Below, one piece after another: positions 11,207 through 32,596 of a stretch of DNA of 64,000 bases (its first letter is position 1; each line of letters starts with the position of its first letter). A model generated the notes under the pieces. The model did not search any database, had not been told where the DNA came from, and was given only the letters and a program-made list of their open reading frames with translations. The stretch is from a bacterium. Its GTDB lineage: Bacteria; Hinthialibacterota; Hinthialibacteria; Hinthialibacterales; Hinthialibacteraceae. The position numbers were made by a program, and so were the translations under genes. The DNA lies in assembly GCA_963662285.2 (NCBI GenBank), contig CAXXMV010000006.1, positions 1,424,284-1,488,283 of the forward strand, in the 5' to 3' direction.

Positions 11207-13987
11207 ATGAGCAGGAGAGATAATTCAATCATATTAAAGGATATTTGGCTGATTGCAGCGGGTGGTTTGCTGATATCTGTTGTATTGGGATTGGTCTCAT
11301 ATTTCAATGTTAACTTGCTGTATGCAATCGGCGACGGTGAATGCATCAACGTCCTTTACGCCAATGGTTATTTTGATTCATTAACCAAGGGCTTATTACC
11401 TGCCAACTCTGAACCTTTCCAGAACGCCAACCTGCTGACCCGGTCGCTGATTACATTTTCAACATGGTCGTTTATTCCTTATCGTGCGCTGATTTGGCTT
11501 GGACAAGCAATGGTTGGAGTATACTTTCTCTACCGATCAATGCTCTTGTTCTCTTTGATTGGAGGAGCGGTAACCGAAGAGCGGATTTGCTTCACTGCCT
11601 TGCTTTTGATTCACCCGCTTTTTTGGATAACGCTGATTTTTCATCCATCCGATGCACTGACCGCTGTCCTGGTATTGGACTACGTCAGTCGGATTGTTGG
11701 TGATAAGACTTCTGATATCACAGGATGTGCATCATTGTTTATCCTGAGCCTTAGTGGCAGCGCTGGCTTCTTGTGGGCGCTGGCCTTGGCAGTCGCCAAT
11801 CTTTTTATCTATCAACCATTATCATTTACGAAGATAAACTTCGCCCTGCGTAGGATGGGGTATGCGCTTGGATTCATCGCTCCGATTGGCATTATCTATG
11901 CAGTGCGGTCATTTGAATGGGGGATATTAGGCGGCCCCTGTCTGACGGATTATCCGACTGCCTTCTCGCAAATTTCAATCGCTAGGTTATTTGATGGAGT
12001 ATGGTCCAGTCATGCCATTGATGCGTTTAGTTGGTTTGGCAATGGATTATTGTATGCATCTGTTACTGTACCTGTTTTCGGATTTTTGTTTTTGCTCGGT
12101 TTGAGCAGTGGATTAGGCGAATCAGGTAGTAAACGAAGATTCAGTCTGATGATGGCGATGGTCGGCGCCATCTTGTTGTTCTTCTTTGCTTTTACGCCGA
12201 TTGATGTTTCGCGCCAATGGATGTTGTCATTTCTTCCTATGGGCTTGATTGGCGTCTTCGGGGGCTTGAAATGGTTGTCGCAATTTAAACCGCAGAGCCG
12301 GACGCCTGTTTGCATAGCGTTTTGCGTTTGCCTGGCGTTTTTTACTGTGTTGTCCAGCGTGAAGGATTTTCAGAATTATTTTGACCGGGCGCGTTATTAC
12401 CAGAATATCTGCGTTGCAATGCAAAAGGAACTCGGACCGGTCATGGTCAATCAGCATGAGTTCGCTGCAGTGCGTTTTGATCCCGTGGTTTTGTCACGAA
12501 CGCCATTCGCCGAACATTTATACCCGGTCGATTTGGGATGGAATATACCTTTTTCGACAATATTTGGTAAACAGGGTGGGCTTTTCTTTGATTTACGTTT
12601 CGCTCCGGCGCCGGATGAGATTATACTGTATTCCCGTTATTGTGAGAGTATAAAACAGTCTTCGGCCATGAATACGCTAAGCGCCCGAACATGGGAAGCA
12701 TCGCTGGATGAGCATTATTCTTCAACTCTTTTATTTAATCTGAAGTTATATAAACGGGAAACTGATCCGGTTAAGGTAATGAGCGACTGGCGGCTTGCGG
12801 CTATGGAAGACGGGTATCATTTTGAAACGCGGCATGAACAGAATTGGTTTGCTTCTCATTTTTTGGGAGAGCGACAATCTGCATTGGATTTTGATGACGA
12901 TGTATTGCCGCAACCGATTGGGCTGAAATGGGATTTCGAGATCGATTTCAGCAATACTCATCAAACCGGTTCTGCATTTGGCTTTGCTCCTGATTCAGCA
13001 TATAGAGCCATCGGCAACTATGGCGCTGGCAGCGGCGGCGATGATGCAGTCAGAAAGATGGGCGTGTTAGAATCGGTTCCGTTTACTATAGAGGGAGATG
13101 AACTGAGCCTTTATGCTGATATCCCATCCGATTCGACGGCGTCATTGGTTTGTTTGGCGGTTTATTGCGAAGTTCCATTCCAGGTGGATGGCGCTGAAGC
13201 GCAATTGGCCCGGCATATATATGAAAAAGAGACTGTTGAGCCTTTGTTGGGAGATGTCTTTTTCTATATTAATCCCCAGCATTTGAATTATGGTCCAGGC
13301 TGGATTCGCGGGTGGCGGGTAGTGCAGGTTTATCAACAAGCGCAACAAGATGGCTGGCGCCGGATTGAGTGGCCGCTTGATGCATGGCGCGGCAGGCAGG
13401 CTTTATGGCATGCTGCGGATCGAAGCCCCAACCATTCAATCAGTTTAGATCAAATCGCCCAATGGAAGCGGCCGCCGGGTTTATATTTTAATTTTGAACA
13501 TGCAAACTATGATGGCTGGCAATCCATTGGCGCTGCGTTTGGCGATAAACCCGCTATAGGATCAATTGGCGGGCAGGACGATATTGATGGTTATGAAGGA
13601 AATTATTTTGTTAATTCTTACTATCAGGGTTCTGATGCAGCCACTGGAACGTTGCGATCAGCAACCTTTGAACTGGAATGGGATCAGATCAGTTTTCACA
13701 TCGGCGGCGGCAATGACGCAGATAATTTATATGTAGGTTTGCGGGTAAATGATAAAGTAGTGCTGCGGGAAACTGGCGGCCAGTCAGAAAACCTGCGTCA
13801 CATAACCTGGGATGTTTCAACCTGGCAGGGCAAGACGGCGCAACTCGAAATAGCAGACTTTTCTTCCAACCCCTGGGGACATATTCTGGTTGATGATATC
13901 CAGGTGTATCAGAAGCCTGTGTTGCATCCAGTTTCTAATGAAGAGCGTGGGCGCCAAGGGCAAGACCGCAATGCGTCCAGCCCTTGA
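11207..13987 (+). CDS. Large polytopic membrane protein of unknown function; the N-terminal ~400 aa are multi-TM and the C-terminal ~500 aa are soluble with two beta-sandwich-like modules
   Basis: It is a long uninterrupted ORF with many hydrophobic helices in the first ~400 aa. The C-terminal module reads GTLRSATFELEWDQISFHIGGGND...GLRVNDKVV...WQGKTAQLEIADFSSNPWGHILVDDIQV. That resembles LamG/GH32-C-type jelly rolls, and a weaker copy lies upstream. The function is unknown. Confidence 0.7.
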   Translation: MSRRDNSIILKDIWLIAAGGLLISVVLGLVSYFNVNLLYAIGDGECINVLYANGYFDSLTKGLLPANSEPFQNANLLTRSLITFSTWSFIPYRALIWLGQAMVGVYFLYRSMLLFSLIGGAVTEERICFTALLLIHPLFWITLIFHPSDALTAVLVLDYVSRIVGDKTSDITGCASLFILSLSGSAGFLWALALAVANLFIYQPLSFTKINFALRRMGYALGFIAPIGIIYAVRSFEWGILGGPCLTDYPTAFSQISIARLFDGVWSSHAIDAFSWFGNGLLYASVTVPVFGFLFLLGLSSGLGESGSKRRFSLMMAMVGAILLFFFAFTPIDVSRQWMLSFLPMGLIGVFGGLKWLSQFKPQSRTPVCIAFCVCLAFFTVLSSVKDFQNYFDRARYYQNICVAMQKELGPVMVNQHEFAAVRFDPVVLSRTPFAEHLYPVDLGWNIPFSTIFGKQGGLFFDLRFAPAPDEIILYSRYCESIKQSSAMNTLSARTWEASLDEHYSSTLLFNLKLYKRETDPVKVMSDWRLAAMEDGYHFETRHEQNWFASHFLGERQSALDFDDDVLPQPIGLKWDFEIDFSNTHQTGSAFGFAPDSAYRAIGNYGAGSGGDDAVRKMGVLESVPFTIEGDELSLYADIPSDSTASLVCLAVYCEVPFQVDGAEAQLARHIYEKETVEPLLGDVFFYINPQHLNYGPGWIRGWRVVQVYQQAQQDGWRRIEWPLDAWRGRQALWHAADRSPNHSISLDQIAQWKRPPGLYFNFEHANYDGWQSIGAAFGDKPAIGSIGGQDDIDGYEGNYFVNSYYQGSDAATGTLRSATFELEWDQISFHIGGGNDADNLYVGLRVNDKVVLRETGGQSENLRHITWDVSTWQGKTAQLEIADFSSNPWGHILVDDIQVYQKPVLHPVSNEERGRQGQDRNASSP

Positions 13988-15791: not shown

Positions 15792-17364
15792 TTATTTAAG
15801 ATTTATTTTTATAATGCGAGTTTTGTTTGGTTCGAGATTGATGGCAAGTCCATTATGCAGTTGGGCGCCGGTGAATGTTTTGGCGCCGTCATCCATGGTT
15901 ACGTTATAACTTTCTTCCGGTTCTACCGTAAACCATTCGGGGATGGTGTTCATGCGCGGCCAGTCTTTCTGGAATCCCATGTAGAGTCGATAGCGTGGTA
16001 TATCGAATTCCAGATGTCCTTGGTAGTTTTCTTTAGCTCGCAATGAAATAACGATGCCATTGTCTATAGGTGCGGCGCCGAGTTCCAGCCCTTGCTGCCA
16101 GGGACGCGCCAGGACGCCTTGAGTATGCATCAGCGCTTGCATGATGGTGGTGCGGACGCCGTTAGCTTGCAATTTCATGGTTCCCCAGAGCTCGCCGTTC
16201 TCCAGGCGCGAGGGATGATCAACTATGTTGTTTTTGGTTTCGCGGTCGACCCATTCAAATCCTTCTTTGACGGGAAGACGGTTGAGCATGTAAATGGCGC
16301 CTTCAATAGAATCCGCATACCCGTCAATGGATTCACCTTCCCAGGGATAGTCTTTGTATTTGGGATTCATCATGCTGGCTAGAGTCGCCTTCATGTGTGA
16401 TGTGTATGTGTTCGTCCCCATCGCCATGTCGTAGCAAAGATACCCCACATAGTTGTATCCCCATCCATCGCTCATTCTGCCATTCCGATCGTCCCTTTTC
16501 GTGAGATGGTTATACATCATGCCCACGTCAAGGATGCCTTTTTCGAGAATCGTGTCATACATTTTTTTCAGGCGGTCGCCATATTCAACCGCTTTTTGCG
16601 GGCGGTGTGTGGTGAGCACAGCTTGCAATAAACCGAGACCGCCTATTATTTCACAGCCGTGGTCGCGCAGGACGCGTCGGGACATAGTTGTCGTCGGCAA
16701 AATAATAGTCGGCCAGTCGTATTGCCCAGGTAAGATATTTTTCATCTCCAGTCATGGTGTATAACCGCGCCAGCGCTTGCAGCTGCTCGCCATTCACTTC
16801 GACATCGTTGGAGGGGATCATACCGAAAGGCGTCTCAATATCCGCGAATTTCCAGAGGTCGTCTTCAATGGCGCGCATGCGGTCAAACCATTCATCGCGG
16901 CCAGTCACTTCGACAATAGCTATAAGGCAGTCTTTGACGTATTCCGATGCCTGAAATACTAACTCTTCGTTTTTTACTTTGATAGTCTCTTGTTTTTTGT
17001 AATCATACGGCGCCGGGATGCGGCCTTTCACATTGCATAAAGAACGTTCAGCATGCAGTATGCTGCGTACCGGGCCGTTTAATGCTTCTATATCAGTGGC
17101 CCATGCCGCCCATGTCAGGAAGGGATAACAATCGGCCGCTGTATCCCGGTAATTCCAATAACCATCGGCAATGTACAAACCTGTTTTTTCGTCAATTTTC
17201 GGCAATGCGATTTCATGCAGCCAACGATGGACCTTGCTTAACGAATGGCCGGCGATTTTGGCTGACCGTGAGGCTCGCGCAATGGCGTCAGCATCTTTCT
17301 CTTGCGCCAAAGATATCTGAACCATCATGCCAGTGATTAATGTAAGTAGAATAAGACGTTTCAT
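15792..17364 (-). pseudogene. Secreted alpha/alpha-toroid-like hypothetical protein split by a 1-nt frameshift (pseudogene or assembly error)
   Basis: ORF 16651..17364 has a signal peptide and ends ...LADYYFADDNYVPTRPARPRL*. ORF 15792..16745 overlaps it in another frame. The reading continues sensibly as ...DNYVP/RVLRDHGCEIIGGLGLLQAV across 16675-16700. Confidence 0.65.
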
Positions 17365-18425: not shown

Positions 18426-20996
18426 ATGACGCCCGAAGAAAAAGCGCTTAAGAAAATCAAAGCAGCCAAACGAACCGGCGCCGATTATCTCGATCTTTCA
18501 AATATGGGTTTAACCTCGCTGCCGCCGGAGGTGTGTGGACTCACCAACCTGTCTAGACTAGATTTGGATAATAACCAACTAAGCGTGCTGCCGCCGGAGG
18601 TGTGTGGACTCACCAACCTGACGACACTCTGGCTGAATAATAACCAACTAAGCGTGCTGCCGCCGAAGGTGTGTGGACTCACCAACCTGACGAAACTCTG
18701 GCTGAATAATAACCAACTAAGCGTGCTGCCGCCGGAGGTGTGTGGACTCACAAACCTGACGGAACTGTATCTAAGTTATAACCAACTAACCTCGCTGCCG
18801 CCGGAGGTGTGTGGACTCACCAACCTGTCTAGTCTAGATTTGGATAATAACCAACTAAGCGTGCTGCCGCCGGAGGTGTGTGGACTCTCCAATCTGACGA
18901 GACTGTATCTAAGTGATAACCAACTAAGCGTGCTGCCGCCGGAGGTAGGTCAACTCGCCAATCTCACTTCACTCGATCTACGTAGCAACCAACTAATCGT
19001 GCTGCCGCCGGAGGTAGTTCAACTCACAAAATTAGAATATCTCTTTCTTGTTGGAAATAAATTACCCATACCACCTGAGATTCTCAATTATTCTCATAAT
19101 CCATCAAAAATCCTAAATTACTATTTTGAGCATATTAAAACCGAAGCGCCTAAACGGGCGCTTAATGAAGCCAAGGTGCTGTTCGTTGGCCAGGGAGATG
19201 TGGGTAAAACATCGTTGATCAAGATGCTGCTGACAGGTAAATACGATAAGAACGAGAACAAGACGGAAGGGATCGACATTCATAAGTGGGATGTGAAGAT
19301 AAAAGGCGATAAGGTGCGTCTTAACCTCTGGGATTTCGGCGGGCAGGAGATTATGCATTCCACCCATAAATTTTTCCTCACCAAACGCAGCGTATATGTT
19401 CTGGTGCTCGATTCGCGCAGGGACGATCGCGCTAACCGTTTATCCTATTGGCTGAGGCTGATCGAAAGTTTTGCCAGCGATTCTCCGGTAATCGTAGTTT
19501 GCAACCAGTGCGATGAGGATCAACTCAACCTCGATTGGCGCAACCTGCATGCTAAATTCCCGAATATCCGCCATTTCGTCAAACGCGCATCCTGCGAGAC
19601 GCCCGAGGGGATAGATGATCTAAAAGAGGCCATTCGTGAACAGGCTGCTAAACTTGATCACCTCAAAGATGTCCTGTTAGAAAGCGAGTTTGCTGTTAAA
19701 GATGAACTTGAAAATATGGAGGAACCTTTCGTCTCGTATGACGACTATCTGGAAATGTGTAAGCGACATGGTTTGACCAATGAACAGAGCCAAAACACCC
19801 TGCTTGAGTTTCTGCACGACCTGGGAATTGTGTTGCATTACAGCGATGCGCCTCACCTGGAATTTACCAATGTCCTGAAACCTGAATGGGTGACTGAGGG
19901 AGTTTATAAAATCCTCAATGCAAATGAATTTAAAAACACCAATGGCGTGGTGGAAACGGATAAACTATCCCTCGTTCTTGACCATAAAGCCTATCCCAAA
20001 GATAAGCGCATGTTCGTATTAGAGATGATGGTGAAATTCGAATTGTGTCATGAGTTTGAAGGTTCGCGTCACTCAAAATTCCTTGTACCGGATTTACTGC
20101 ATACCGAAGCACTTGATACCGGCGACTGGTCGGATGCGCTGGCTTTCCAATACCACTACGAGGTGCTCCCTCAAAGCATCATGACCCGCTTTATCGTACG
20201 CATGTTTCCGTATATGTCTGATAGCGTCTGCTGGTTGAAAGGGGTCATGCTTGAATCGGAAGACGGCAGGAATCAGGCGTTGATTAAATCAGATTTAGAC
20301 GATGCCAAAATCTTCATTAAAGTGCGGGGCCAAGAGGGAACCCGCCGCGACCTGCTGCAAATCATCCGCGCCGAATTCAGGTTGATACATGAGACATTTT
20401 CCAAACTAAGGCCAAAGGAAATGGTTCCAATCCCTGATACAGAAGCAGTGTATCCATACAAAAGTTTATTGAAATTGAAAGAAAATGTGATTGATAAATA
20501 CTATCTTCCGGAAGCTGATTGTATTATCTATCCTAATCAATTATTGGATATAGTCGAAACGCCAAAATGGCGTGAAGATCATAAAAAAATGAATTCATCT
20601 GAATCAGATGGATCAATTAATTTAAAAATTGATATTAATCAGGGAGATAAGAGAATGGAAAAATACAAGATTAATAATGAAGGCGGCGCGGTTAATATTA
20701 AGGGAACACAGAACGTTGGTTCTATCAATTTCGTTAAATCGGTTGAACAATCCACTTTAAGCGACGACCTGAAAAATGCCTTTACCGCCGCTTATCAGAA
20801 ACTAAAGGAAGGCGGTCTACCGGAAGCATACCAAAAACCTGTTGAAGACGACCTAAATACAATCAAGACGGAGATGGAAAAAGAAACTCCTGATCAAGGG
20901 GTGGTCAAAACAATATGGAATAGAATCCAACAGGTAGCTCCATCCGTAGCAACAGCGCTTGGTATGGCGGCGGCGTTAAAATCATTGTTGGTCTAA
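18426..20996 (+). CDS. Bacterial ROCO protein: leucine-rich repeats, Roc (Ras-of-complex) GTPase and COR domain, with an uncharacterised ~150-aa C-terminal tail
   Basis: There are eight 23-aa LRRs (LPPEVCGLTNLxxLxLxNNQLSV). The Roc P-loop is VGQGDVGKTS, G3 is DFGGQE and G4 is NQCD. The COR-like segment includes LLEFLHDLGIVLHY ... KFLVPDLL. Confidence 0.85.
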   Translation: MTPEEKALKKIKAAKRTGADYLDLSNMGLTSLPPEVCGLTNLSRLDLDNNQLSVLPPEVCGLTNLTTLWLNNNQLSVLPPKVCGLTNLTKLWLNNNQLSVLPPEVCGLTNLTELYLSYNQLTSLPPEVCGLTNLSSLDLDNNQLSVLPPEVCGLSNLTRLYLSDNQLSVLPPEVGQLANLTSLDLRSNQLIVLPPEVVQLTKLEYLFLVGNKLPIPPEILNYSHNPSKILNYYFEHIKTEAPKRALNEAKVLFVGQGDVGKTSLIKMLLTGKYDKNENKTEGIDIHKWDVKIKGDKVRLNLWDFGGQEIMHSTHKFFLTKRSVYVLVLDSRRDDRANRLSYWLRLIESFASDSPVIVVCNQCDEDQLNLDWRNLHAKFPNIRHFVKRASCETPEGIDDLKEAIREQAAKLDHLKDVLLESEFAVKDELENMEEPFVSYDDYLEMCKRHGLTNEQSQNTLLEFLHDLGIVLHYSDAPHLEFTNVLKPEWVTEGVYKILNANEFKNTNGVVETDKLSLVLDHKAYPKDKRMFVLEMMVKFELCHEFEGSRHSKFLVPDLLHTEALDTGDWSDALAFQYHYEVLPQSIMTRFIVRMFPYMSDSVCWLKGVMLESEDGRNQALIKSDLDDAKIFIKVRGQEGTRRDLLQIIRAEFRLIHETFSKLRPKEMVPIPDTEAVYPYKSLLKLKENVIDKYYLPEADCIIYPNQLLDIVETPKWREDHKKMNSSESDGSINLKIDINQGDKRMEKYKINNEGGAVNIKGTQNVGSINFVKSVEQSTLSDDLKNAFTAAYQKLKEGGLPEAYQKPVEDDLNTIKTEMEKETPDQGVVKTIWNRIQQVAPSVATALGMAAALKSLLV
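18519..19070 (+). repeat. 69-bp tandem DNA repeats encoding the LRR units (8 copies, several nearly identical)
   Basis: The word ctgccgccggaggt recurs at 18519, 18588, 18726, 18795, 18864, 18933 and 19002, which is exact 69-bp phasing. The in-phase 18657 copy reads ctgccgccgaaggt (one mismatch, Glu->Lys). Confidence 0.9.
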
Positions 20997-23605: not shown

Positions 23606-24541
23606 CTATTTCACTGCCTTAAAGAATTCTGCGGCTGATCCGGCGATTCCTTCGGCGTCCAGTTTGTATTCTTTGTACATATCTTCGGGGCTGCCGGATT
23701 GACCGAATTGATCCAGAACTCCCCAGCGTTTAACTGGTACGGGGAATTTCTCTGACGTCACTTCGCAAACCGCTGAACCCAGGCCGCCAATGATGCTGTG
23801 ATCTTCGACGGTGAACAGGCATCCTGTTTCCTTGGCGCATTTTACGATCAATTCTTCATCAATGGGCTTGATGGAATGGATGTTGACGATGCGAGCATCA
23901 ATCTTCTTGGCGGCCAGCAGCTCTTTGGCTTTGAGCGCATGTTGTACGGTTCCACCGGAAGCGATGATGGTCATATCAGCGCCGGGCGCCAGTTCAGCGC
24001 CTTTACCTAATTGGAATTTATAACCCTCGCCATTGACGTCGGGTAGTTTCTGACGGGTTAGACGCAGGTAAACCGGGCCGTCGTGTTGCGCGGCGAAGGC
24101 TACGGCTTGTTTGGTTTCCACTTCGTCAGCTGGTTGAATGACGACCATACCGGGGATAGAGCGCATCAGGCCGATGTCTTCCAGACCCATTTGGCTGTGG
24201 CCGTCTTCTCCGATGCCGATTCCGGCGTGGGTGCCGACGATTTTGACATTGGCTTTGGCGTATCCAACCGAGATGCGGATAGTATCGAAGCGTCCCGTGA
24301 TGAAGCAGGCGAAACTGCATACAAAGGGGACTTTGCCCGATAGAGCCATTCCGGCGCCGGCGCCGATCATGTTGGCTTCAGCGATTCCAAACTCAAAAAA
24401 GCGCTCGGGGTATTTATCGGCGAAGAGGCAGGTCATGGTGGATTTGCTTAAATCAGCATCCAGAACCACAACATTAGGATTGCTCCGCCCGATATCCACC
24501 AAGGCTTCTCCAAAGGCGAGACGAGTTGCTTTTGTAGACAT
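23606..24541 (-). CDS. Transketolase, C-terminal (pyrimidine-binding) subunit of a split transketolase
   Basis: The protein has FGIAEANMIGAGAGMA, GTHAGIGIGEDGHSQ and the C-terminal transketolase fold. It sits directly downstream of the N-terminal subunit gene. Confidence 0.9.
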   Translation of the reverse strand: MSTKATRLAFGEALVDIGRSNPNVVVLDADLSKSTMTCLFADKYPERFFEFGIAEANMIGAGAGMALSGKVPFVCSFACFITGRFDTIRISVGYAKANVKIVGTHAGIGIGEDGHSQMGLEDIGLMRSIPGMVVIQPADEVETKQAVAFAAQHDGPVYLRLTRQKLPDVNGEGYKFQLGKGAELAPGADMTIIASGGTVQHALKAKELLAAKKIDARIVNIHSIKPIDEELIVKCAKETGCLFTVEDHSIIGGLGSAVCEVTSEKFPVPVKRWGVLDQFGQSGSPEDMYKEYKLDAEGIAGSAAEFFKAVK

Positions 24542-24639
24542 ATTATCCTTCCATATCTATAGGAAAATTCTATTAATTTCAGTGTTACCCCGGTATGTCT
24601 GGTTACTCTGGTAGAACCGGGTTTGATCCAGATCAGGAA

Positions 24640-25473
24640 TTATACTTGAGCCAGTTCCTTGAGCGCCTGCTCGGTCTCTTCAGGATTGGGAGTCTTGCCA
24701 TGCCAGCCGACCTGGTTTTCCATGAACGAAACGCCTTTGCCTTTGACGGTTTTAGCCCATATAAGAGTGGGGCGGTCTTTGGTGGCCTGGGCTTCGTCGA
24801 GCGCTTTGATAACCTGTTCCATGTCATGGCCGTTGATGGCGATGACGTGCCAGTTGAATGAGCGCCATTTGGCGTCGATGGGCGTTAATGACATTACGTC
24901 TTCGACATAACCGTCGATCTGGGCGTTGTTGTTATCCAGGATAAGCGTCAGGTTGTTGAGTTTGAATTTGCTGGCGGCCATAACCGCTTCCCAGATTTGG
25001 CCTTCCTGTGATTCGCCGTCGCCGATCATGCAATATACGCGCCAGGCTTTTTTGTCCATTTTGGCGGTCATAGCCATGCCCAGAGCGATGGAGAGTCCTT
25101 GTCCCAATGATCCGGTCGAGGCTTCCATAGCGTTGCAGCGAACGCGGTCGGGGTGTCCCTGGAGGAATGATCCGAATTTGCGCAGATTGATGAGTTCTTT
25201 TTCATCAAAATAACCCGCCTGAGCCAGGGCGGAGTACCATGCCGGGACGCAGTGTCCCTTGGACATGATGAAACGGTCGCGTTCTTCCCATTGGGGATTG
25301 GCCGGATCGTGTTTCATTACTCCGAATAGAAGCGCCGCCGTGATATCCGCGGCGGATAATGAACCACCCGGATGTCCCGAACCGGCTTCAGCCAGCATCC
25401 TGATGCTATTCATGCGAATATTTCGCGCGTGTGATTTGAGCGTACTTATGTCTCTAGTGAGTTCAAAAGCCAT
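24640..25473 (-). CDS. Transketolase, N-terminal (thiamine diphosphate-binding) subunit
   Basis: The motifs are GSGHPGGSLS, SKGH, GSLGQGLS and GDGESQEGQIWEA. Confidence 0.9.
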   Translation of the reverse strand: MAFELTRDISTLKSHARNIRMNSIRMLAEAGSGHPGGSLSAADITAALLFGVMKHDPANPQWEERDRFIMSKGHCVPAWYSALAQAGYFDEKELINLRKFGSFLQGHPDRVRCNAMEASTGSLGQGLSIALGMAMTAKMDKKAWRVYCMIGDGESQEGQIWEAVMAASKFKLNNLTLILDNNNAQIDGYVEDVMSLTPIDAKWRSFNWHVIAINGHDMEQVIKALDEAQATKDRPTLIWAKTVKGKGVSFMENQVGWHGKTPNPEETEQALKELAQV

Positions 25474-26574: not shown

Positions 26575-26696
26575 CGTACGCGCCTATTCATGTAGTAGAT
26601 TGATATAATGCATATTATTGAAGGTTCATCTCAAAAGTGATTTGCAAATTATATATTTGCCCGTAAAATATATAATAGTTGTTCATTCCCGCAGAA

Positions 26697-26939
26697 ATGG
26701 ATAAGACGCTGATGAATGCCCTGGACATTATTACAGCGATAGAAAAACTGCCGCAAGATGAAAAACAGTTAGTCATTGATTTTGCGGTTTCTATCAGAGA
26801 AGCAATGTATCTAGCTGCTGACTATTCCCCGGAAGATGAGGAGATGATCGTTGAAGAAGCCAAACTCTGTAAACAAAGGGTAGATGTAAAAGAACATTCT
26901 TCGGCGGATGACTTGCGTAATTCTCTTGGTTTAACCTAA
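26697..26939 (+). CDS. Putative type II antitoxin (small acidic protein upstream of a RelE-family toxin)
   Basis: The ~80-aa acidic ORF ends 10 nt before the toxin gene on the same strand. No specific family motif was recognised. The ATG at 26697 is preferred over the TTG at 26679. Confidence 0.55.
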   Translation: MDKTLMNALDIITAIEKLPQDEKQLVIDFAVSIREAMYLAADYSPEDEEMIVEEAKLCKQRVDVKEHSSADDLRNSLGLT

Positions 26940-26949
26940 GAGCAATTTA

Positions 26950-27210
26950 ATGAGGTTTGTTCACCGCAAAAAATTCACCAAAGGTCTTGAAAAACTCACC
27001 CCAAACCAAAAGAAGAGCGTTGGGGAAGTTATTAAATTATTCGAAGATGATCCTTTCCATCCTAAACTCAATAATCATGCCCTTCATGGTAAACTAAAAG
27101 ATTTGCGATCTATTTCTGTCGGAGGAGATTTACGTATCACTTTTTTTGAAGAAGATAATTATGAGGTGGTCTACCTTGTATGTATTGGAACCCATAACCA
27201 AGTGTATTGA
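26950..27210 (+). CDS. RelE/YafQ-family type II toxin (mRNA interferase)
   Basis: The 86-aa protein has HPKLNNHALHGKLKDLRSISVGGDLRITFFEEDNYEVVYLVCIGTHNQVY. This matches the RelE/StbE/YafQ pattern (H.L.G.l.g.rs..v..d.Ri.f......v.l...G.H..vY). Confidence 0.78.
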   Translation: MRFVHRKKFTKGLEKLTPNQKKSVGEVIKLFEDDPFHPKLNNHALHGKLKDLRSISVGGDLRITFFEEDNYEVVYLVCIGTHNQVY

Positions 27211-27245: not shown

Positions 27246-27899
27246 TCAGGCTGGTTTCATTTTTAGGATTTTTTTGACAAGAAGGTCAACGTTCGTATAT
27301 GGATGCCATGTTCTACTTGATGGATTTGCAGCAGAGTTATGATGAAAATCGTTAATTCTTTCTGCACCTTTAAATGCTTTTTCAAGGTTGGGGTATAACG
27401 AATTAATAATTGATTGATTCTTTTTGTAATCTGGGATATATACTTGTAAATCATGTCTGACTTCATCGTTATCCTTAAATTGTTTTGTTGTATAAGCGAA
27501 ATGAAGAAGAAACCAGAATTCAAAACTGGGAGTTGAAAAAGCGATATTAAAGGTAGGCTTTTTCCCTTTTATATTGTTATTTATACTATTTGCTTTATCG
27601 ATGGCTTTATCGAAAGTTTCATGTGTATCGCGATCAAAAACACACCAAATGTGATCAAACAGTGCTTTATTTTTATTGAGCATTTTTTCTGCATGTTCCA
27701 CAACCTTTATTGGTGCAGAGTCACATTCTTTACCATGGATTTCTATCTGGAGTTGATGGATTTTCCTCTTTTTTCTTAGATCTTTAAAATATTGTGTTTC
27801 GGTCGTCTCTCTTTCGCATACAATCAATATTTTATTACCTGAGAATTTAGGAGCATTTTGAGTGAATTTATTTTTTGCGCGATTTTGATGTCTACTCAT
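27246..27899 (-). CDS. RloB-like protein (TOPRIM-like partner of an AAA ATPase; AbiLii-like)
   Basis: The N-terminal ILIVCERETTETQYFKDL matches the RloB signature (ilIvcEGekTEp.YF). Its ATG overlaps the ATPase stop codon (TAATG). Confidence 0.75.
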   Translation of the reverse strand: MSRHQNRAKNKFTQNAPKFSGNKILIVCERETTETQYFKDLRKKRKIHQLQIEIHGKECDSAPIKVVEHAEKMLNKNKALFDHIWCVFDRDTHETFDKAIDKANSINNNIKGKKPTFNIAFSTPSFEFWFLLHFAYTTKQFKDNDEVRHDLQVYIPDYKKNQSIINSLYPNLEKAFKGAERINDFHHNSAANPSSRTWHPYTNVDLLVKKILKMKPA

Positions 27900-29179
27900 T
27901 AGAAATCAAGCCCCCCCAGGAATGGAATAGCGCCATAGCGTCCCGCCAAGTATCCTTTTTGCAGGGCTTCTTCTTTCCGGGGCTTAAAATCGGTCAGGGG
28001 ATATAAAATAGTCGCGGCTTCTTTATTCTTCTCGGTAAACCAGACTTGGTCGCGTCGCAATATATCCGTATTCAACTGGGTTGTATCATGGGTTGTGAAA
28101 ATTAGTTGAGCGCCATTTTTATTCAACTCCTCGCTGTGCACCATCTCAATCAATTTTCTGAAAAGCATAGGATGTAAATTTGAACCGATTTCATCCAGGA
28201 AAATAGTTTTTCCTAGATTTAGTGAATCTACCAAAGGGCCGAGTAATGAGAACAAAACTCTTGTTCCTGCCGATTCTTTATTTGGAGTTAAATAGACATT
28301 TTTGCCTGTATCATTTTTCTTGTGAAGGAATTTCCATGCTATTAATTCTTCTTTTAATTTCTTAATAAACATATCCATTATTGAATTAGGTTTACTTGTT
28401 GGTGATTCTAAATTACGAAATTCATTCCTTTTCGTTTTTATATCCATAACGCCTAAATCCGCTTGTTTTAATATATTTCTAATGATAATAGACTGTTCAT
28501 TTTTATCATCAATAATTGAAGCGGTAATTTCTGAATTGGATAATGATTCAAAATAATCTAAAAATCGAAAGCAGTTTTTGAACCATTCGTAAACATTACC
28601 TAATTGCCTATGGTTAAATTGAGCGGCAGTCGATAGAAAGAGAGTTTTAAATTTTGTTTTCTCTTTCAGGCTTTCTTTCTCGCCCTTGAGGAATGTACTG
28701 AAATTCCATTCATACTCTTTTTTTTCATCATTAAAAAAACGGTAAAACCATTGCTGGGCTTTCCCATTAGGGTAGGCAATAAGCCATTCCTTATAAACTT
28801 TCTTTTTTTTTATCGCAAATCCATATTGATAACGGATTCCCTCATGAATAAAGATGATTTCGAATTCACTTAGTTCCTTTTCGCTTTTTGAATCAAATCC
28901 AAAAGGAGCAATATCAATTTCATCAAGAAAATTTCTTCGGATTGATTCGTCAACAATTAAATTTCTCATGAATTTTCCGGCTTTGTATAAATTGCTTTTG
29001 CCTGATGCGTTAGCGCCGTAGATGGCTGCGCTTTTTAGTAGTTTTACGTTAGATAATCCTGGCGCTTGGGGATCGATCAGGTGGTTGGGGTGTTCGTTGT
29101 CTTTATTGTTGGCCACCATGCTCAGGGTTTGTTTATCTTTAATGGAACGGTAATTTTTTACTGAAAATTCAATCAACAT
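27899..29179 (-). CDS. AAA family ATPase (AAA_21/ABC-like; AbiLi-like abortive-infection ATPase)
   Basis: The N-terminus is MLIEFSVKNYRSIKD. Walker A is YGANASGKSNL, Walker B is IFLDEIGSNLHP, and the signature end is QLIFTTHDT. Confidence 0.82.
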   Translation of the reverse strand: MLIEFSVKNYRSIKDKQTLSMVANNKDNEHPNHLIDPQAPGLSNVKLLKSAAIYGANASGKSNLYKAGKFMRNLIVDESIRRNFLDEIDIAPFGFDSKSEKELSEFEIIFIHEGIRYQYGFAIKKKKVYKEWLIAYPNGKAQQWFYRFFNDEKKEYEWNFSTFLKGEKESLKEKTKFKTLFLSTAAQFNHRQLGNVYEWFKNCFRFLDYFESLSNSEITASIIDDKNEQSIIIRNILKQADLGVMDIKTKRNEFRNLESPTSKPNSIMDMFIKKLKEELIAWKFLHKKNDTGKNVYLTPNKESAGTRVLFSLLGPLVDSLNLGKTIFLDEIGSNLHPMLFRKLIEMVHSEELNKNGAQLIFTTHDTTQLNTDILRRDQVWFTEKNKEAATILYPLTDFKPRKEEALQKGYLAGRYGAIPFLGGLDF

Positions 29180-29348
29180 TGTACTTGCCTATCAATTTAA
29201 TCGCGATTTCCGCATAAAAACTGCGGATGTATGGTTATAATTTACATATATATCGGATTATGTGCAAGTTTACTTGATCTTTTTTTAGATATTTATCTAA
29301 AATACTCTAATCATTTCTGAGAATATTCAGAATCATAAGTGATAGCAT

Positions 29349-29381
29349 CAAGGGCTGACTGCATTGCGGTCTTGCCCTTGG
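29349..29381 (-). repeat. Solo A-type hairpin repeat in the divergent intergenic region between the ATPase/RloB and pAgo/SIR2 operons
   Basis: The sequence is caagggctgactgcattgcggtcttgcccttgg, preceded by gtgatagcat (the conserved flank). Confidence 0.8.
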
Positions 29382-29509
29382 TGCCAGGCAATATCCTCTT
29401 TTACTGTTTTTTCTATCCAAGTAGATTATTTCGACTCATCATATTTCTAATAATAAATACCATGTTGATGATTATTGAGGTTGCTGTCGGAATTTTTTGA
29501 AACAATTTG

Positions 29510-29553
29510 TTGACATTTATTGTAACAAAGATTATGATTATTAATCTTTGTTA
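29510..29553 (+). promoter_or_regulatory. Sigma70-like promoter candidate for the pAgo operon, overlapped by a perfect 12-bp inverted repeat
   Basis: TTGACA (29510-29515) is followed by a 17-nt spacer and then TATGAT (29533-29538), about 92 nt upstream of the pAgo ATG. The inverted repeat taacaaagatta (29523-29534) / taatctttgtta (29542-29553) straddles the -10 box. Confidence 0.4.
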
Positions 29554-29629
29554 TATTCTATATTCTGTGAAACCGAAAGCAAAATATAGATAAACATTAT
29601 TTGAAAATCATTAATATTGGCGAATTAAA

Positions 29630-31531
29630 ATGAATGATCATAAAAAAATAGCTTTGAATTTCTTACCCATAGAACCACAGAATTTTGAATTCACAGTTTA
29701 TCGCAAGTTAATGATAAATAATGAACAGAGACCTTGTGAAGATGTTTTTAAATCTTCATTACCAAATGAAAAGAAAAATGAACCTTGGCCCAAATATTGG
29801 GTGTCCTTTACACAAAAAGAAGATTATGAAGAATTTTTAGTTAATACTAAAACAAACAATTATTTGACTAGAGAGTATCTTTTTCAACAATTAGTAATGA
29901 ATATCAAGGAGCATATTCCTGAACGACTCGAAAGAAATGAAGAAAAATTCTATAAACGTAGAATATTTTTTAAACTTGAAGAATTTGATATTGGCAAACA
30001 AGTAATATGGCTAGATCCATTTTATTTAAAAAAAACATCCACTTTTGGATTCTTAATTGATTTTTGTTTTATCTCTAATGATGATTCATCACATTCAAAA
30101 GAACGTCAAAAACTATCTCTTAATTTAGATAGTTCCTATCGCTCAAACAAAAATTTCCACCAAGAAAAACTTTATAAAATAAAAAATTTCATTGACATAT
30201 TTCTTGAAAAATTAAATCCAATTTCTGATAATACTGACTTGAACTTAAGGATATCTAACAAATTTTCATGCATTAATTCAAGTACATTAAGTAATAAAAT
30301 CTACAGTTTTGATAATATGAAAACTAATAATTCTCAATTTCAGGGAATCAAAGAATACGGACCCTATCAAAAAAGTAATATTAATATTCACTATCATTTT
30401 ATATTTAAGGAAGAAAATATCGATTTAGGCCGGGATCTATTAAGGGCTTTAAATGGAGAAACATTTAAACAAACTTTTCCAGGAATGGAAAAAATGTTTC
30501 ATATAAAATTAGGAAAGGATAATGTTTCAAAAATAATAATTAATTCATATAATAAAAGTGAAATTGATAAAGCAATCGAATCAATCAACAAATCAGGCTA
30601 TGAAAATAACATTGCTACTTTCATTTTCCCAGAAAAAGATTCAGATTTTTACTATAACCTAAAGAATGTTTTTCTTAATTCTGGTGTTTTAACCCAAGGC
30701 GTTCATATTGAAACCTTAAAAAATACGTCTGGTTTAAAGTGGTCGATTTCAAGTATTGCTCTTCAGTTGTTTTCAAAATCTGGTGGGGTGCCTTGGAGGC
30801 TTAAACCTAGTAATGAAAATTGTTTAATCATTGGAATTGGCAAAGCGCACCATCTGAAAAAAGATAATGGTCGAACTTTAGTTGAAAAATATTTTGCATA
30901 TTCTGTTCTGACAGATTCAAGTGGAAAATATGTTTCTATGGATGTACTTTCTAGTGAAAAGGATGAAAATAATTATCTAAATAGTCTTCAAGCAAATCTG
31001 AAAAAAATTGTAGAAGATTATAAAGATAAATATCAAAAAATCACTCTACATATACCTTTTAAAATACAACTACGAGAACTTGACGCAATAAAGAAAACGA
31101 TTATAAACATAGATTCAGAGAAAGAATTTGTTGTAATCAAAATTGATGATCAGAGTAAATATTTTGGATATAATATAGATGTTAATTCATTTGTGCCTTA
31201 TGAAAGTACTTTGTTAGAACTTTCACAAAATGAATATTTATTATGGACTGAAGGTTTAAATTACCATAATAAAAAAGTGATTAAACGATATTCAAATCCA
31301 CTCCATATAGAATTTTATTATTCAAATAAAAATTTATTAAGTCAGAGTGAAAAGAATTTATATTTACAGGATATAATGAATTTGTCAGGTGCAAGCTGGC
31401 GGGGATTCAATGCAAAGAAACTACCGATATCAATGTTTTATCCCAAGATAATATCACGATTCATAAAAGAGTTTTCAACTCGTAATCTAACAGAGATTAA
31501 TTTTCAAGATTTACCACCTTGGTTTTTATAA
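29630..31531 (+). CDS. Prokaryotic Argonaute (pAgo), catalytically inactive and PAZ-less: an N-terminal N/L1/L2-like region (~240 aa) followed by MID and PIWI
   Basis: The MID pocket pattern is FYYNLK...LTQGV...KWSISSIALQLFSKSGGVPWRL. The PIWI strands are CLIIGIGKAH, KITLHIPFKIQLRELDAIKK, EFVVIKIDDQSKYFGY, YLLWTEG, NPLHIEF and KKLPISMFYPKIISRFIKEF. Positions aligned by eye to three of the four DEDX residues read G, P and K. Confidence 0.85.
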   Translation: MNDHKKIALNFLPIEPQNFEFTVYRKLMINNEQRPCEDVFKSSLPNEKKNEPWPKYWVSFTQKEDYEEFLVNTKTNNYLTREYLFQQLVMNIKEHIPERLERNEEKFYKRRIFFKLEEFDIGKQVIWLDPFYLKKTSTFGFLIDFCFISNDDSSHSKERQKLSLNLDSSYRSNKNFHQEKLYKIKNFIDIFLEKLNPISDNTDLNLRISNKFSCINSSTLSNKIYSFDNMKTNNSQFQGIKEYGPYQKSNINIHYHFIFKEENIDLGRDLLRALNGETFKQTFPGMEKMFHIKLGKDNVSKIIINSYNKSEIDKAIESINKSGYENNIATFIFPEKDSDFYYNLKNVFLNSGVLTQGVHIETLKNTSGLKWSISSIALQLFSKSGGVPWRLKPSNENCLIIGIGKAHHLKKDNGRTLVEKYFAYSVLTDSSGKYVSMDVLSSEKDENNYLNSLQANLKKIVEDYKDKYQKITLHIPFKIQLRELDAIKKTIINIDSEKEFVVIKIDDQSKYFGYNIDVNSFVPYESTLLELSQNEYLLWTEGLNYHNKKVIKRYSNPLHIEFYYSNKNLLSQSEKNLYLQDIMNLSGASWRGFNAKKLPISMFYPKIISRFIKEFSTRNLTEINFQDLPPWFL

Positions 31532-31543
31532 AAGAAGATTAGC

Positions 31544-32596
31544 ATGAATTTTAAGGAAAACGAGATAATTTTTTTATTAGGTGCTGGGGCTAGTAAAGAT
31601 GCAGATATCCCAATGTCTAATGAAATGATTGAAAAAGTTGAAAATTTAATTTTATCTGATAAATTTTGGAAAGAGTTTAGGGATTTTTATTATTTGATAA
31701 AGAGTGCAATTTTTTATGCAGATGGTGTTCAGGGTAAGTTTAATAAAAAAGTTAACTTTAATATAGAGAGATTGTTTAATGTCTTAATTGAACTAGAAAA
31801 AAAAGAAGAACATCCACTATATCCATTTATTGGCCAATGGAATATTAAATTTTCTGAAATTGTAGGTAATGATTATGAGTTAATTAAAAAATTTCAAGAT
31901 TTAATCTTAAGTGAATTAAAAAATTGGATTACGCTAAAAATTAATAGTAACGCAGATTACTATAAAAAACTCAAAGATTTTAAAATAGAGATCAATCATT
32001 CTCTCAGGTTATTTACTCTTAACTATGATTTATGTGTAGAAAAGTCATTGTTATCAGAAGATTTTATTGTGGAACGAGGCTTCAATGAAAATCGCATTTG
32101 GGATTACAAAAAGATAATTGACTTTCCTGCTGACAATACTCCAGATATTTTTCTATATAAGTTACACGGCTCTATTGATTGGGAAAGAGATAAGAATACT
32201 GGAGAAGTCAAATATACTGATTGTAATGCACAAAATCCAGATTTGATTTTTGGAAGCGCCTATAAACTACAATATGTAGATCCATATTTATTTCAATTTT
32301 CTGAATTTAGGCACTACACTCTTAAAGCAAAACTCATAATTGTTGTTGGTTATGGCTTAGGAGATGAACATATAAATGGAATCATAAAGCAAGCGTTGGA
32401 GCAGGATGATTCAAAAAAATTGCTATATGTATCTCCTTCTGCAAATAAAGAAGAAATACAAAAATATCTTGGATTGAACAATGATGATCAATTGGAAACG
32501 ATAAAATCAAGTGCCTCGAATTACTTTCAGAAAGAATTAGAATTGAATAAATTGAAAAACTTCTTTCCAGATGATTCAGATGATTTATGGATGTGA
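31544..32596 (+). CDS. Stand-alone SIR2-like domain protein (SIR2_2 family), the predicted NADase effector partner of the pAgo
   Basis: The motifs are IIFLLGAGASKDADIP, RLFTLNYDLCVE, FLYKLHGSIDW and LIIVVGYGLGDEHIN. The gene starts 12 nt after the pAgo stop on the same strand. Confidence 0.82.
   Translation: MNFKENEIIFLLGAGASKDADIPMSNEMIEKVENLILSDKFWKEFRDFYYLIKSAIFYADGVQGKFNKKVNFNIERLFNVLIELEKKEEHPLYPFIGQWNIKFSEIVGNDYELIKKFQDLILSELKNWITLKINSNADYYKKLKDFKIEINHSLRLFTLNYDLCVEKSLLSEDFIVERGFNENRIWDYKKIIDFPADNTPDIFLYKLHGSIDWERDKNTGEVKYTDCNAQNPDLIFGSAYKLQYVDPYLFQFSEFRHYTLKAKLIIVVGYGLGDEHINGIIKQALEQDDSKKLLYVSPSANKEEIQKYLGLNNDDQLETIKSSASNYFQKELELNKLKNFFPDDSDDLWM

Follow-up and report, generated by a model that had tools for sequence, protein, structure and literature searches.

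A two-gene operon in a genome of the bacterial phylum Hinthialibacterota, in which an Argonaute that appears unable to cleave its targets is followed by a stand-alone SIR2 protein, raises the question of whether it represents a new arrangement of a prokaryotic Argonaute (pAgo) defence system or a known one. The operon lies at positions 29630–32596 of a 64,000-nucleotide stretch of DNA (assembly GCA_963662285.2, contig CAXXMV010000006.1, positions 1,424,284 to 1,488,283 of the forward strand), which is referred to here as the window and in whose own numbering all positions are given. The original prediction for this locus described its domain split as unusual and, although it named BPAS systems, which combine a long-B pAgo with Sir2, it missed that the operon is one of them. 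The locus is an intact, divergent copy of this already described defence system, in its ordinary layout, and the operon very probably encodes a functional BPAS that works essentially as GbBPAS does.

The two open reading frames (ORFs) lie on the forward strand, encode proteins of 633 and 350 amino acids (aa) and stand 12 nt apart, as had been proposed, and the peptide motifs quoted from them are all present in the translations. Neither ORF (29630–31531 and 31544–32596) contains a frameshift or an internal stop. Public records label both proteins as hypothetical or as 'Piwi domain', and NCBIfam holds no model for either. Family and fold calls were made with PADLOC-DB v2 (2023), with Pfam at its curated cut-offs and with Foldseek searches of the PDB. 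The operon comprises the following parts.

29510..29538, + strand: sigma-70-like promoter candidate, TTGACA-17-TATGAT, ~90 nt before the pAgo ATG (11 of 12 consensus matches)
29630..31531, + strand: bAgo, the sensor of BPAS, 633 aa (Pfam Piwi, PADLOC pAgo_II, GbAgo alignment, AlphaFold2 model, Foldseek)
29630..30334, + strand: N-L1-L2 region without PAZ, aa 1–235 (boundary carried over from the EcAgo map by profile alignment)
30335..30814, + strand: MID domain, aa 236–395, with a predicted YK-type 5′-phosphate pocket (family alignment A1, AfAgo pocket residues)
30815..31528, + strand: PIWI domain, apparently inactive, aa 396–633 (profile alignment against EcAgo, RsAgo and AfAgo; A1)
31532..31543, + strand: 12-nt intergenic spacer, AAGAAGATTAGC (read from the sequence)
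31544..32596, + strand: bAgaS, predicted stand-alone SIR2_2 NADase effector, 350 aa (Pfam, PADLOC, GbbAgaS alignment, AlphaFold2 model)
within 31544..32596, + strand: SIR2 Rossmann loop G13-A14-G15-x-S17 (SIR2 alignment A2)
32021–32023, + strand: predicted catalytic N160 of SIR2 (aligned with N155 of GbbAgaS; A2)
32165–32167, + strand: H208 of SIR2 (A2)

Because the spacer between the two genes is only 12 nt long, it indicates that pAgo and SIR2 are probably co-transcribed and translationally coupled.

The characterised relative, GbBPAS, consists of GbAgo (HAG96803) and GbbAgaS (HAG96802) (Song et al., Nat Commun 2023, PMC10620215), and both proteins of the operon are orthologous to its components. 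The SIR2 protein aligns with GbbAgaS from end to end (aa 1–346 on 1–345) at 40% identity (E 1e-80), with N160 falling on N155, while residues 6–397 of the Argonaute are collinear with residues 2–393 of GbAgo at 32% identity (E 3e-58), without any insertion or deletion the size of a PAZ domain; this comparison covers the first 393 aa of GbAgo. The N-terminal half of the Argonaute matches GbAgo (E 9e-58), whereas the N-terminal halves of EcAgo, of the BPAN type, and of EaAgo, of the BPAM type, gave no significant match. When expressed by itself, GbbAgaS is toxic and depletes nicotinamide adenine dinucleotide (NAD+); its toxicity is suppressed by GbAgo, with which it co-purifies (PMC10620215). 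For the complete GbBPAS, cell killing and NAD+ depletion require the presence of a plasmid with a CloDF13 origin, and the N155A substitution in GbbAgaS abolishes the effect (PMC10620215).

The effector of the present operon carries the features expected of such a protein. The 350-aa protein matches Pfam SIR2_2 over aa 156–308 (E 1.4e-12; 48.4 bits, cut-off 24.5) and, over aa 1–346, almost the whole of the PADLOC model Aga_SIR2 'Class II' (PDLC02408; profile positions 1–340 of 343; E 4.5e-119). In a 44-sequence alignment of SIR2 proteins (A2), residues G13, A14, G15, S17, N160, D162 and H208 are invariant, so far as can be read from these positions leaving the NAD-binding and catalytic residues apparently intact. 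An AlphaFold2 model (predicted local distance difference test score, pLDDT, of 87.5) shows a Rossmann fold that begins at residue 8 and carries a helical insertion. The term 'minimal' that had been used for this protein, which is of the full-length bAgaS type, is thus a slight understatement. In the PDB, its fold comes closest to those of the NADase SIR2 subunits found in SIR2-HerA defence systems (E 5e-14; template-modelling score normalised to the query, TMq, ~0.65), and the SIR2-APAZ protein of SPARSA is a distant match (E 2e-6, TMq 0.44).

An alternative is that the product of the SIR2 gene does not work by depleting NAD+ in bulk and is, for example, a nuclease, a protein ADP-ribosyltransferase or deacylase, or a producer of a signalling nucleotide. 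The SIR2 proteins of pAgo operons were first annotated as putative nucleases (PMC6299218), structurally related SIR2 proteins of other defence systems act in large assemblies with partners, and the mechanism of BPAS lacks biochemical resolution. We nevertheless consider any such activity quite improbable: GbbAgaS lowers cellular NAD+ in a manner that depends on N155, the equivalent of N160 here, and the NAD-binding Rossmann loop, the asparagine and the histidine are all invariant.

For the Argonaute, the search results place the MID-PIWI module in the long-B lineage. The 633-aa protein matches Pfam Piwi over aa 331–610 (E 8.9e-14; 51.9 bits, cut-off 28.9), so that both Pfam assignments in the original prediction held up, and it matches the PADLOC model pAgo_II 'Class II' (PDLC02381) over its full length (aa 5–633 on profile positions 2–617 of 617; E 6.9e-207, 687 bits). 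Among PDB sequences, the closest solved MID-PIWI protein is AfAgo (E 2.5e-20 for the sequence by itself, 3e-34 for a profile of 62 sequences), and there are further matches to EcAgo of BPAN (PDB 23wq, E 4e-30) and to RsAgo (E 1e-19). An AlphaFold2 model built on the 62-sequence family alignment (A1) was confident (mean pLDDT 92.1, predicted template-modelling score, pTM, 0.90), and a Foldseek search of the PDB with this model returned full-length RsAgo first (E ~1e-30, TMq 0.72–0.75). The PADLOC class scores, the PDB sequence matches and the fold match to RsAgo all assign the protein to long-B pAgos.

The same structural comparison locates the N-terminal scaffold. AfAgo, which is MID-PIWI only, scored 0.81 when normalised to the target (TMt) and 0.52–0.56 when normalised to the query; because the latter value is higher for RsAgo than for AfAgo, the N-terminal third of the Argonaute aligns with the N-L1-L2 lobe. 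Together with the collinearity with GbAgo, this bears out the proposal that the N/L1/L2 scaffold belongs to the Argonaute polypeptide. The published map of EcAgo gives N 1–92, L1 92–155, a reduced PAZ 155–218, L2 218–308, MID 308–484 and PIWI 484–731 (PMC13535254). When this map was transferred to the 633-aa protein through a profile alignment, T308 of EcAgo corresponded to Q236 (the approximate start of MID) and S484 to E396 (the approximate start of PIWI). This leaves 235 residues before MID, compared with 307 in EcAgo, and because the deficit of 72 residues covers the entire 63-aa reduced PAZ of EcAgo, it supports the reading of the protein as PAZ-less, in agreement with the earlier remark that there was no room for such a domain. 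The protein is accordingly a single-chain long pAgo, with an N-L1-L2 lobe and MID-PIWI on one polypeptide and PAZ absent.

The site at which the guide would be held also appears intact. Residues Y341, K345, Q356 and K383 are invariant in the 62-sequence alignment and align with Y123, K127, Q137 and K163 of AfAgo, in keeping with the MID pocket originally proposed. From structural work on AfPiwi, we take the aligned residues to be those that form the pocket for the guide 5′-phosphate. A YK-type MID motif is characteristic of long pAgos (Ryazansky et al., PMC6299218). By contrast with the pocket, the catalytic DEDX tetrad appears to have been lost, to judge from its first position and from the strand that would carry the second aspartate. 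At the first aspartate position stands G404, in the same column as the glycine of the inactive EcAgo, RsAgo and AfAgo; the profile segment 'cLiiGigqah' aligns here with ELVIGIGSAN of EcAgo, ELVVGMGLAE of RsAgo and DIIIGTGATR of AfAgo. The second-aspartate strand (K470-I-T-L-H474-I-P-F-K-I479) has no acidic residue, and the fourth position is K606. The original reading of three DEDX positions as G, P and K was essentially right for the glycine and the lysine, while for the second aspartate I475 is a likelier equivalent than P476. In the family alignment G402 and H474 are invariant, as are P630, W631 and F632, and G404 is conserved in at least 90% of sequences; the C-terminal PWFL is conserved in the clade, and AfAgo ends with an identical PWFL.

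These features bear on the possibility that the operon is a rearranged short-pAgo system of the SPARSA type, in which APAZ moved from the SIR2 protein to the Argonaute to give a new domain split. Such a system would have an analogous function, with a SIR2 and an inactive Argonaute; APAZ is structurally equivalent to N-L1-L2 (PMC10954474); and the PADLOC models for SIR2-APAZ fusions (Aga_SIR2-PNTD1-PNTD2) do give weak matches to the 350-aa protein. These matches, however, are confined to 28–32 aa of the Rossmann loop (aa 4–36), and the protein is SIR2 only rather than a SIR2-APAZ fusion. The Argonaute, at 633 aa and with an N-L1-L2 lobe and a YK motif, is not the short MID-PIWI protein of ~450–500 aa with an HK or RK motif that SPARSA contains. 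Its MID-PIWI lies far nearer to that of the long-B AfAgo, EcAgo and RsAgo; the short Ago of SPARSA (8in8) reached just 1.6e-4 to 5e-7 in the PDB sequence and profile searches, and the short-type PADLOC models (pAgo_I, 'Class I') scored 60 bits or less against the 687 bits of class II. With the fold of the SIR2 protein also closer to SIR2-HerA than to SIR2-APAZ, a rearranged SPARSA is very unlikely.

A decaying, non-functional remnant within a horizontally acquired islet would explain the atypical base composition. A low-GC stretch extends from ~26.5 kb to 32.75 kb of the window (24–40% GC), and the operon itself has 24–33%, compared with 45–53% in the flanks; the absence of a name for either protein in public annotation would also fit. 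However, both ORFs are full length against the family profiles, uninterrupted and confidently modelled, and every family-invariant residue has been kept. We therefore give decay only a very small probability; both proteins are intact.

To place the operon among its relatives, a profile scan was run over one genome per GTDB species. It found 225 encoding stretches, of which the best 80 loci (L001–L080) were examined; a single-protein search of genome contigs had found no relatives of the pAgo. These 80 loci come from Bacteroidota, Chlorobiota, Chloroflexota, Acidobacteriota, Planctomycetota, Desulfobacterota, Cyanobacteria, Nitrospirota and Verrucomicrobiota, together with one Bacillota isolate and one Methylomicrobium plasmid. 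At all 80, a full-length SIR2 homologue (37–60% identity) stood directly downstream of the pAgo on the same strand, with a gap of 5–31 nt in 79 loci and of 183 nt in one (median ~11 nt). The Argonaute ORFs of the clade were 620–712 aa long (median 638), the Argonautes being uniformly PAZ-less and about 620–660 aa in size, and all 80 loci matched the N-terminal half of GbAgo while none matched those of EcAgo or EaAgo. When the flanking ORFs of the 80 loci were clustered, no conserved third gene, such as a helix-turn-helix regulator, was found, and the pair is thus strictly conserved as two genes. Since the survey shows the same lengths, order and spacing throughout, the 633-aa length, the bare SIR2 downstream and the missing PAZ are the rule for the clade and not the exception.

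The original view of the protein as intermediate between short and long-B pAgos consequently gives way to that of a clade-typical length, and the supposedly unusual domain split to the standard BPAS architecture. The novelty that had been suggested does not hold either, for a clade that shares this gene order and this division of domains has already been characterised, as seen from homology to GbAgo and GbbAgaS, from the PADLOC class II models, from all 80 loci and from published work (PMC10620215, PMC10954474). What did stand was the functional reading: the sequence features and the analysis of the operon as a whole lend support to a dead, guide-binding Argonaute that would act with a SIR2 NADase in abortive infection.

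A word-indexed search found at least 263 Argonaute homologues of 600–670 aa, the best of those listed being 59% identical, and 2,284 homologues of the SIR2 protein were found, an identical sequence among them. In a collection of 15 billion proteins, the pAgo's own record sits in a 90%-identity cluster, and because the representative of this cluster is a 54-aa fragment, the pAgo is hidden from homologue searches. This clustering artefact could make the pAgo appear more novel than it really is. Across the loci, the identities of the Argonaute and of the SIR2 protein gave a Pearson correlation of 0.45 and a Spearman correlation of 0.09; most relatives are about equally distant, so that the correlation is uninformative, and for this reason the pairing is argued from synteny and from the tanglegram of Song et al.

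The pairing in turn renders hardly credible the idea that the SIR2 gene is an unrelated defence gene next door and that the Argonaute needs no partner, silencing plasmids through guide-directed binding of DNA in the way proposed for RsAgo. RsAgo, the best structural match, does lower the expression of plasmid genes, and no effector has been demonstrated for it (PMC10620215), but the two genes occur together at every one of the loci examined, in many phyla and with spacers of ~11 nt, og_44 proteins co-evolve with their pAgos in operons in which the pAgo is upstream and og_44 downstream (PMC10620215), and GbAgo both co-purifies with GbbAgaS and neutralises its toxicity (PMC10620215).

In the same survey, type I restriction-modification genes were the commonest neighbours of the BPAS pair (HsdS in 18, HsdM in 14 and HsdR-like genes in 10 and 6 of the 80 loci). 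They mostly lay directly upstream on the same strand (for example L046 4561–5991, L080 3502–5388 and L047 9187–12060). The association of BPAS with restriction-modification operons is recurrent and not obligatory.

Several points weigh against assigning the function of GbBPAS to this operon. What the operon does is predicted here from its genes, and it is only moderately similar to the characterised system, with 32% identity to GbAgo along the 393 N-terminal residues of the latter and 40% identity between the SIR2 proteins. In E. coli, BPAS action itself has been demonstrated against a plasmid with a CloDF13 origin alone and not against phage, and its guide type is inferred. No structure of a BPAS was present in the copy of the PDB searched. 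The signals for transcription are also faint: the best promoter candidate of the operon, at 29510–29538, is a consensus match only and may not be of the host's promoter type; the region shows no excess of promoter-like sites (27, with 23.5 expected), and the promoter call is weak; downstream of the SIR2 gene no intrinsic terminator could be detected, and the 3′ intergenic region folds no better than shuffled sequence. Set against the orthology with GbBPAS, the full-length ORFs and the conserved pairing, these points leave a functional BPAS as very much the favoured reading.

By analogy with GbBPAS, the system may work as follows. The 633-aa Argonaute, presumably unable to slice, would load short 5′-phosphorylated guides, most likely RNA from invader transcripts, as suggested by analogy with other inactive pAgos; all characterised inactive pAgos use 5′-phosphorylated RNA guides against single-stranded DNA targets (Song et al., PMC10620215). 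At rest, the Argonaute would hold the co-translated bAgaS in a stable, inhibited complex, as has been shown for GbBPAS. Base-pairing of the guide with complementary invader DNA would be the probable trigger, and the resulting guide-target duplex may then release or activate the SIR2 NADase through a signal passed from the Argonaute. NAD+ would be depleted, as occurs in vivo with GbBPAS, and the arrest or death of the cell would block the spread of the plasmid or phage.

The activation step in this scheme is a conjecture, because the PDB copy searched held no BPAS structure; no in vitro reconstitution of BPAS was found in the literature searched either. For these two reasons there is room for a route other than that of SPARSA. 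The PAZ-less clade might activate its SIR2 protein in a manner unlike the tetramerisation of SPARSA, for example through a change in a beta-relay on the Argonaute surface that frees the SIR2 protein to form oligomers like those of SIR2-HerA, or a hairpin upstream of the operon (29345–29384) might be a dedicated regulatory or guide-related RNA; we regard either as improbable. Such an activation route or hairpin RNA would be a family-wide property, or a local feature awaiting verification, and not something demonstrated by this locus.

The BPAS operon is not the only defence-related system in its vicinity. Ahead of it, within the low-GC stretch, are the following genes, and the intergenic region that separates the operon from them contains one further feature.

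26679–26939, + strand: putative antitoxin, 86 aa, before the YafQ/RelE toxin (called from position; no family match)
26950–27210, + strand: YafQ/RelE-family toxin, 86 aa (Pfam YafQ_toxin E 4e-8, TIGR02385 E 9e-8)
27246–29179, − strand: AbiLi/AbiLii two-gene abortive-infection system, divergent from BPAS (Pfam, PADLOC)
29345–29384, + strand: GC-rich hairpin GCAUCAAGGGC...GCCCUUGGUGC, with a U-rich tract ~15 nt later (folding)

The AbiLi ATPase (426 aa; AAA_21 E 8e-37, PADLOC AbiLi E 6e-97) overlaps the RloB/AbiLii gene by one base, and AbiLii (217 aa) matches Pfam RloB (E 2e-40). The toxin-antitoxin pair, AbiL, BPAS and the dip in GC content together form a small, horizontally acquired defence islet. 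It is delimited by GC content alone, because there are no tRNA genes in the window and no convincing direct repeats flank the islet, only short AT-rich chance matches; no integrase was found at its edges. On one side the islet is bordered by split transketolase genes and a gene of the cytidylyltransferase-like type, and on the opposite side by an MlaE/TolC-like pair.

Between AbiLi and the pAgo, the divergent intergenic region (29180–29629, 450 nt) is AT-rich and contains no extra ORF of note. The hairpin within it folds better than chance (z = −4.64 for the 121-nt fold, with none of 200 shuffles folding as well), is unique in sequence in the window and is preceded by a weak promoter-like site (29274–29303). 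Rfam gave no match to it, nor anything at gathering thresholds in the whole window, and chance-level matches to long non-coding RNAs were seen at 25.4–33 kb. The hairpin could be a small RNA, a terminator or insulator, or an operator.

Elsewhere in the window, an ROCO protein of 856 aa (18426–20996, + strand) combines leucine-rich repeats, a Roc GTPase, COR-A (Pfam E 9e-42) and COR-B. An ORF of 926 aa (11207–13987, + strand) and two ORFs of 317 and 237 aa (15792–17364, − strand) gave no Pfam match at E ≤ 1e-4. Two separate subunit genes code for transketolase (ORFs of 277 and 311 aa; 23606–25473, − strand), identified by eye from the translations and situated immediately to the left of the islet. 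The gene content of the window further includes a sulfatase, GFO/IDH/MocA oxidoreductases, xylose-isomerase-like TIM barrels, ThuA and a pseudopilin, and hints at no more than a bacterium from the environment that may be PVC-like.

For the study of how BPAS is activated, that is, how duplex sensing by a PAZ-less Argonaute is conveyed to a separate SIR2 protein, the locus is no more tractable than the cloned GbBPAS. Its main value lies in correct annotation: the BPAS label places a defence islet, made up of a RelE/YafQ toxin-antitoxin pair, AbiL and BPAS, in this genome. Beyond the locus, the survey establishes that in at least 80 genomes, each standing for one species and drawn from many phyla, the BPAS pair is a module of strictly two genes at close spacing.

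The operon can also be compared with known systems one by one. Long-A pAgos, which slice, are set apart by their DEDX residues and canonical PAZ, where the present protein has G404 and no residues left for a PAZ. SIR2-HerA (Nezha) and Thoeris ThsA provide the closest solved folds for the effector and share its predicted Asn/His NADase chemistry; they differ in partner and activation signal, relying on the ATPase HerA, or on a signalling nucleotide and a SLOG domain, in place of an Argonaute. The 350-aa protein has no extra domain, and no HerA was found among the neighbouring genes scanned with Pfam. SPARSA is similar in logic, in that an inactive Ago senses a guide-target duplex and a SIR2 NADase then depletes NAD+ and brings about abortive infection. 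Its APAZ, the equivalent of N-L1-L2, is however fused to SIR2 and encoded upstream of an Ago that is MID-PIWI only; it belongs to another pAgo clade, and its SIR2 is of the SIR2_1 family rather than SIR2_2, with a TMq of 0.44 between the two.

Within the long-B lineage, EcBPAN (EcAgo with the bAgaN nuclease; PDB 23wq) and RsAgo resemble the present system in being inactive, in fold, in having an effector gene downstream and in the glycine at the first catalytic position. They differ in keeping a reduced PAZ* of ~60 aa, and their N-terminal halves have no detectable similarity to that of the 633-aa protein. AfAgo shares the YKQK pocket and the C-terminal PWFL, and the heterodimer fAfAgo (AF1318 with AfAgo-N) is equivalent to a PAZ-less long pAgo; the N-L1-L2 portion is a separate polypeptide in AfAgo and is fused in the 633-aa protein, and in place of a SIR2 the effector downstream of AfAgo is a fusion protein with a helical domain. 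Among single-chain long-B pAgos, PAZ has been lost to every extent up to its complete disappearance, and many have a gene for a ThsA-like Sir2 immediately downstream (Manakova et al., NAR 2024, PMC10954474). EbAgo of Epilithonimonas bovis DSM 19482 (WP_076783222.1), which illustrates this reduction and loss of PAZ (PMC10954474), corresponds to locus L043 of our survey: it is a full-length homologue, described bioinformatically and structurally only, with 38% identity over aa 7–633 and a SIR2 homologue 16 nt downstream. Closest of all is GbBPAS, which comes from another host and of which the present locus, read from its genes, is a divergent relative, but which has the same domain split, with the pAgo upstream and a stand-alone SIR2_2 protein downstream.

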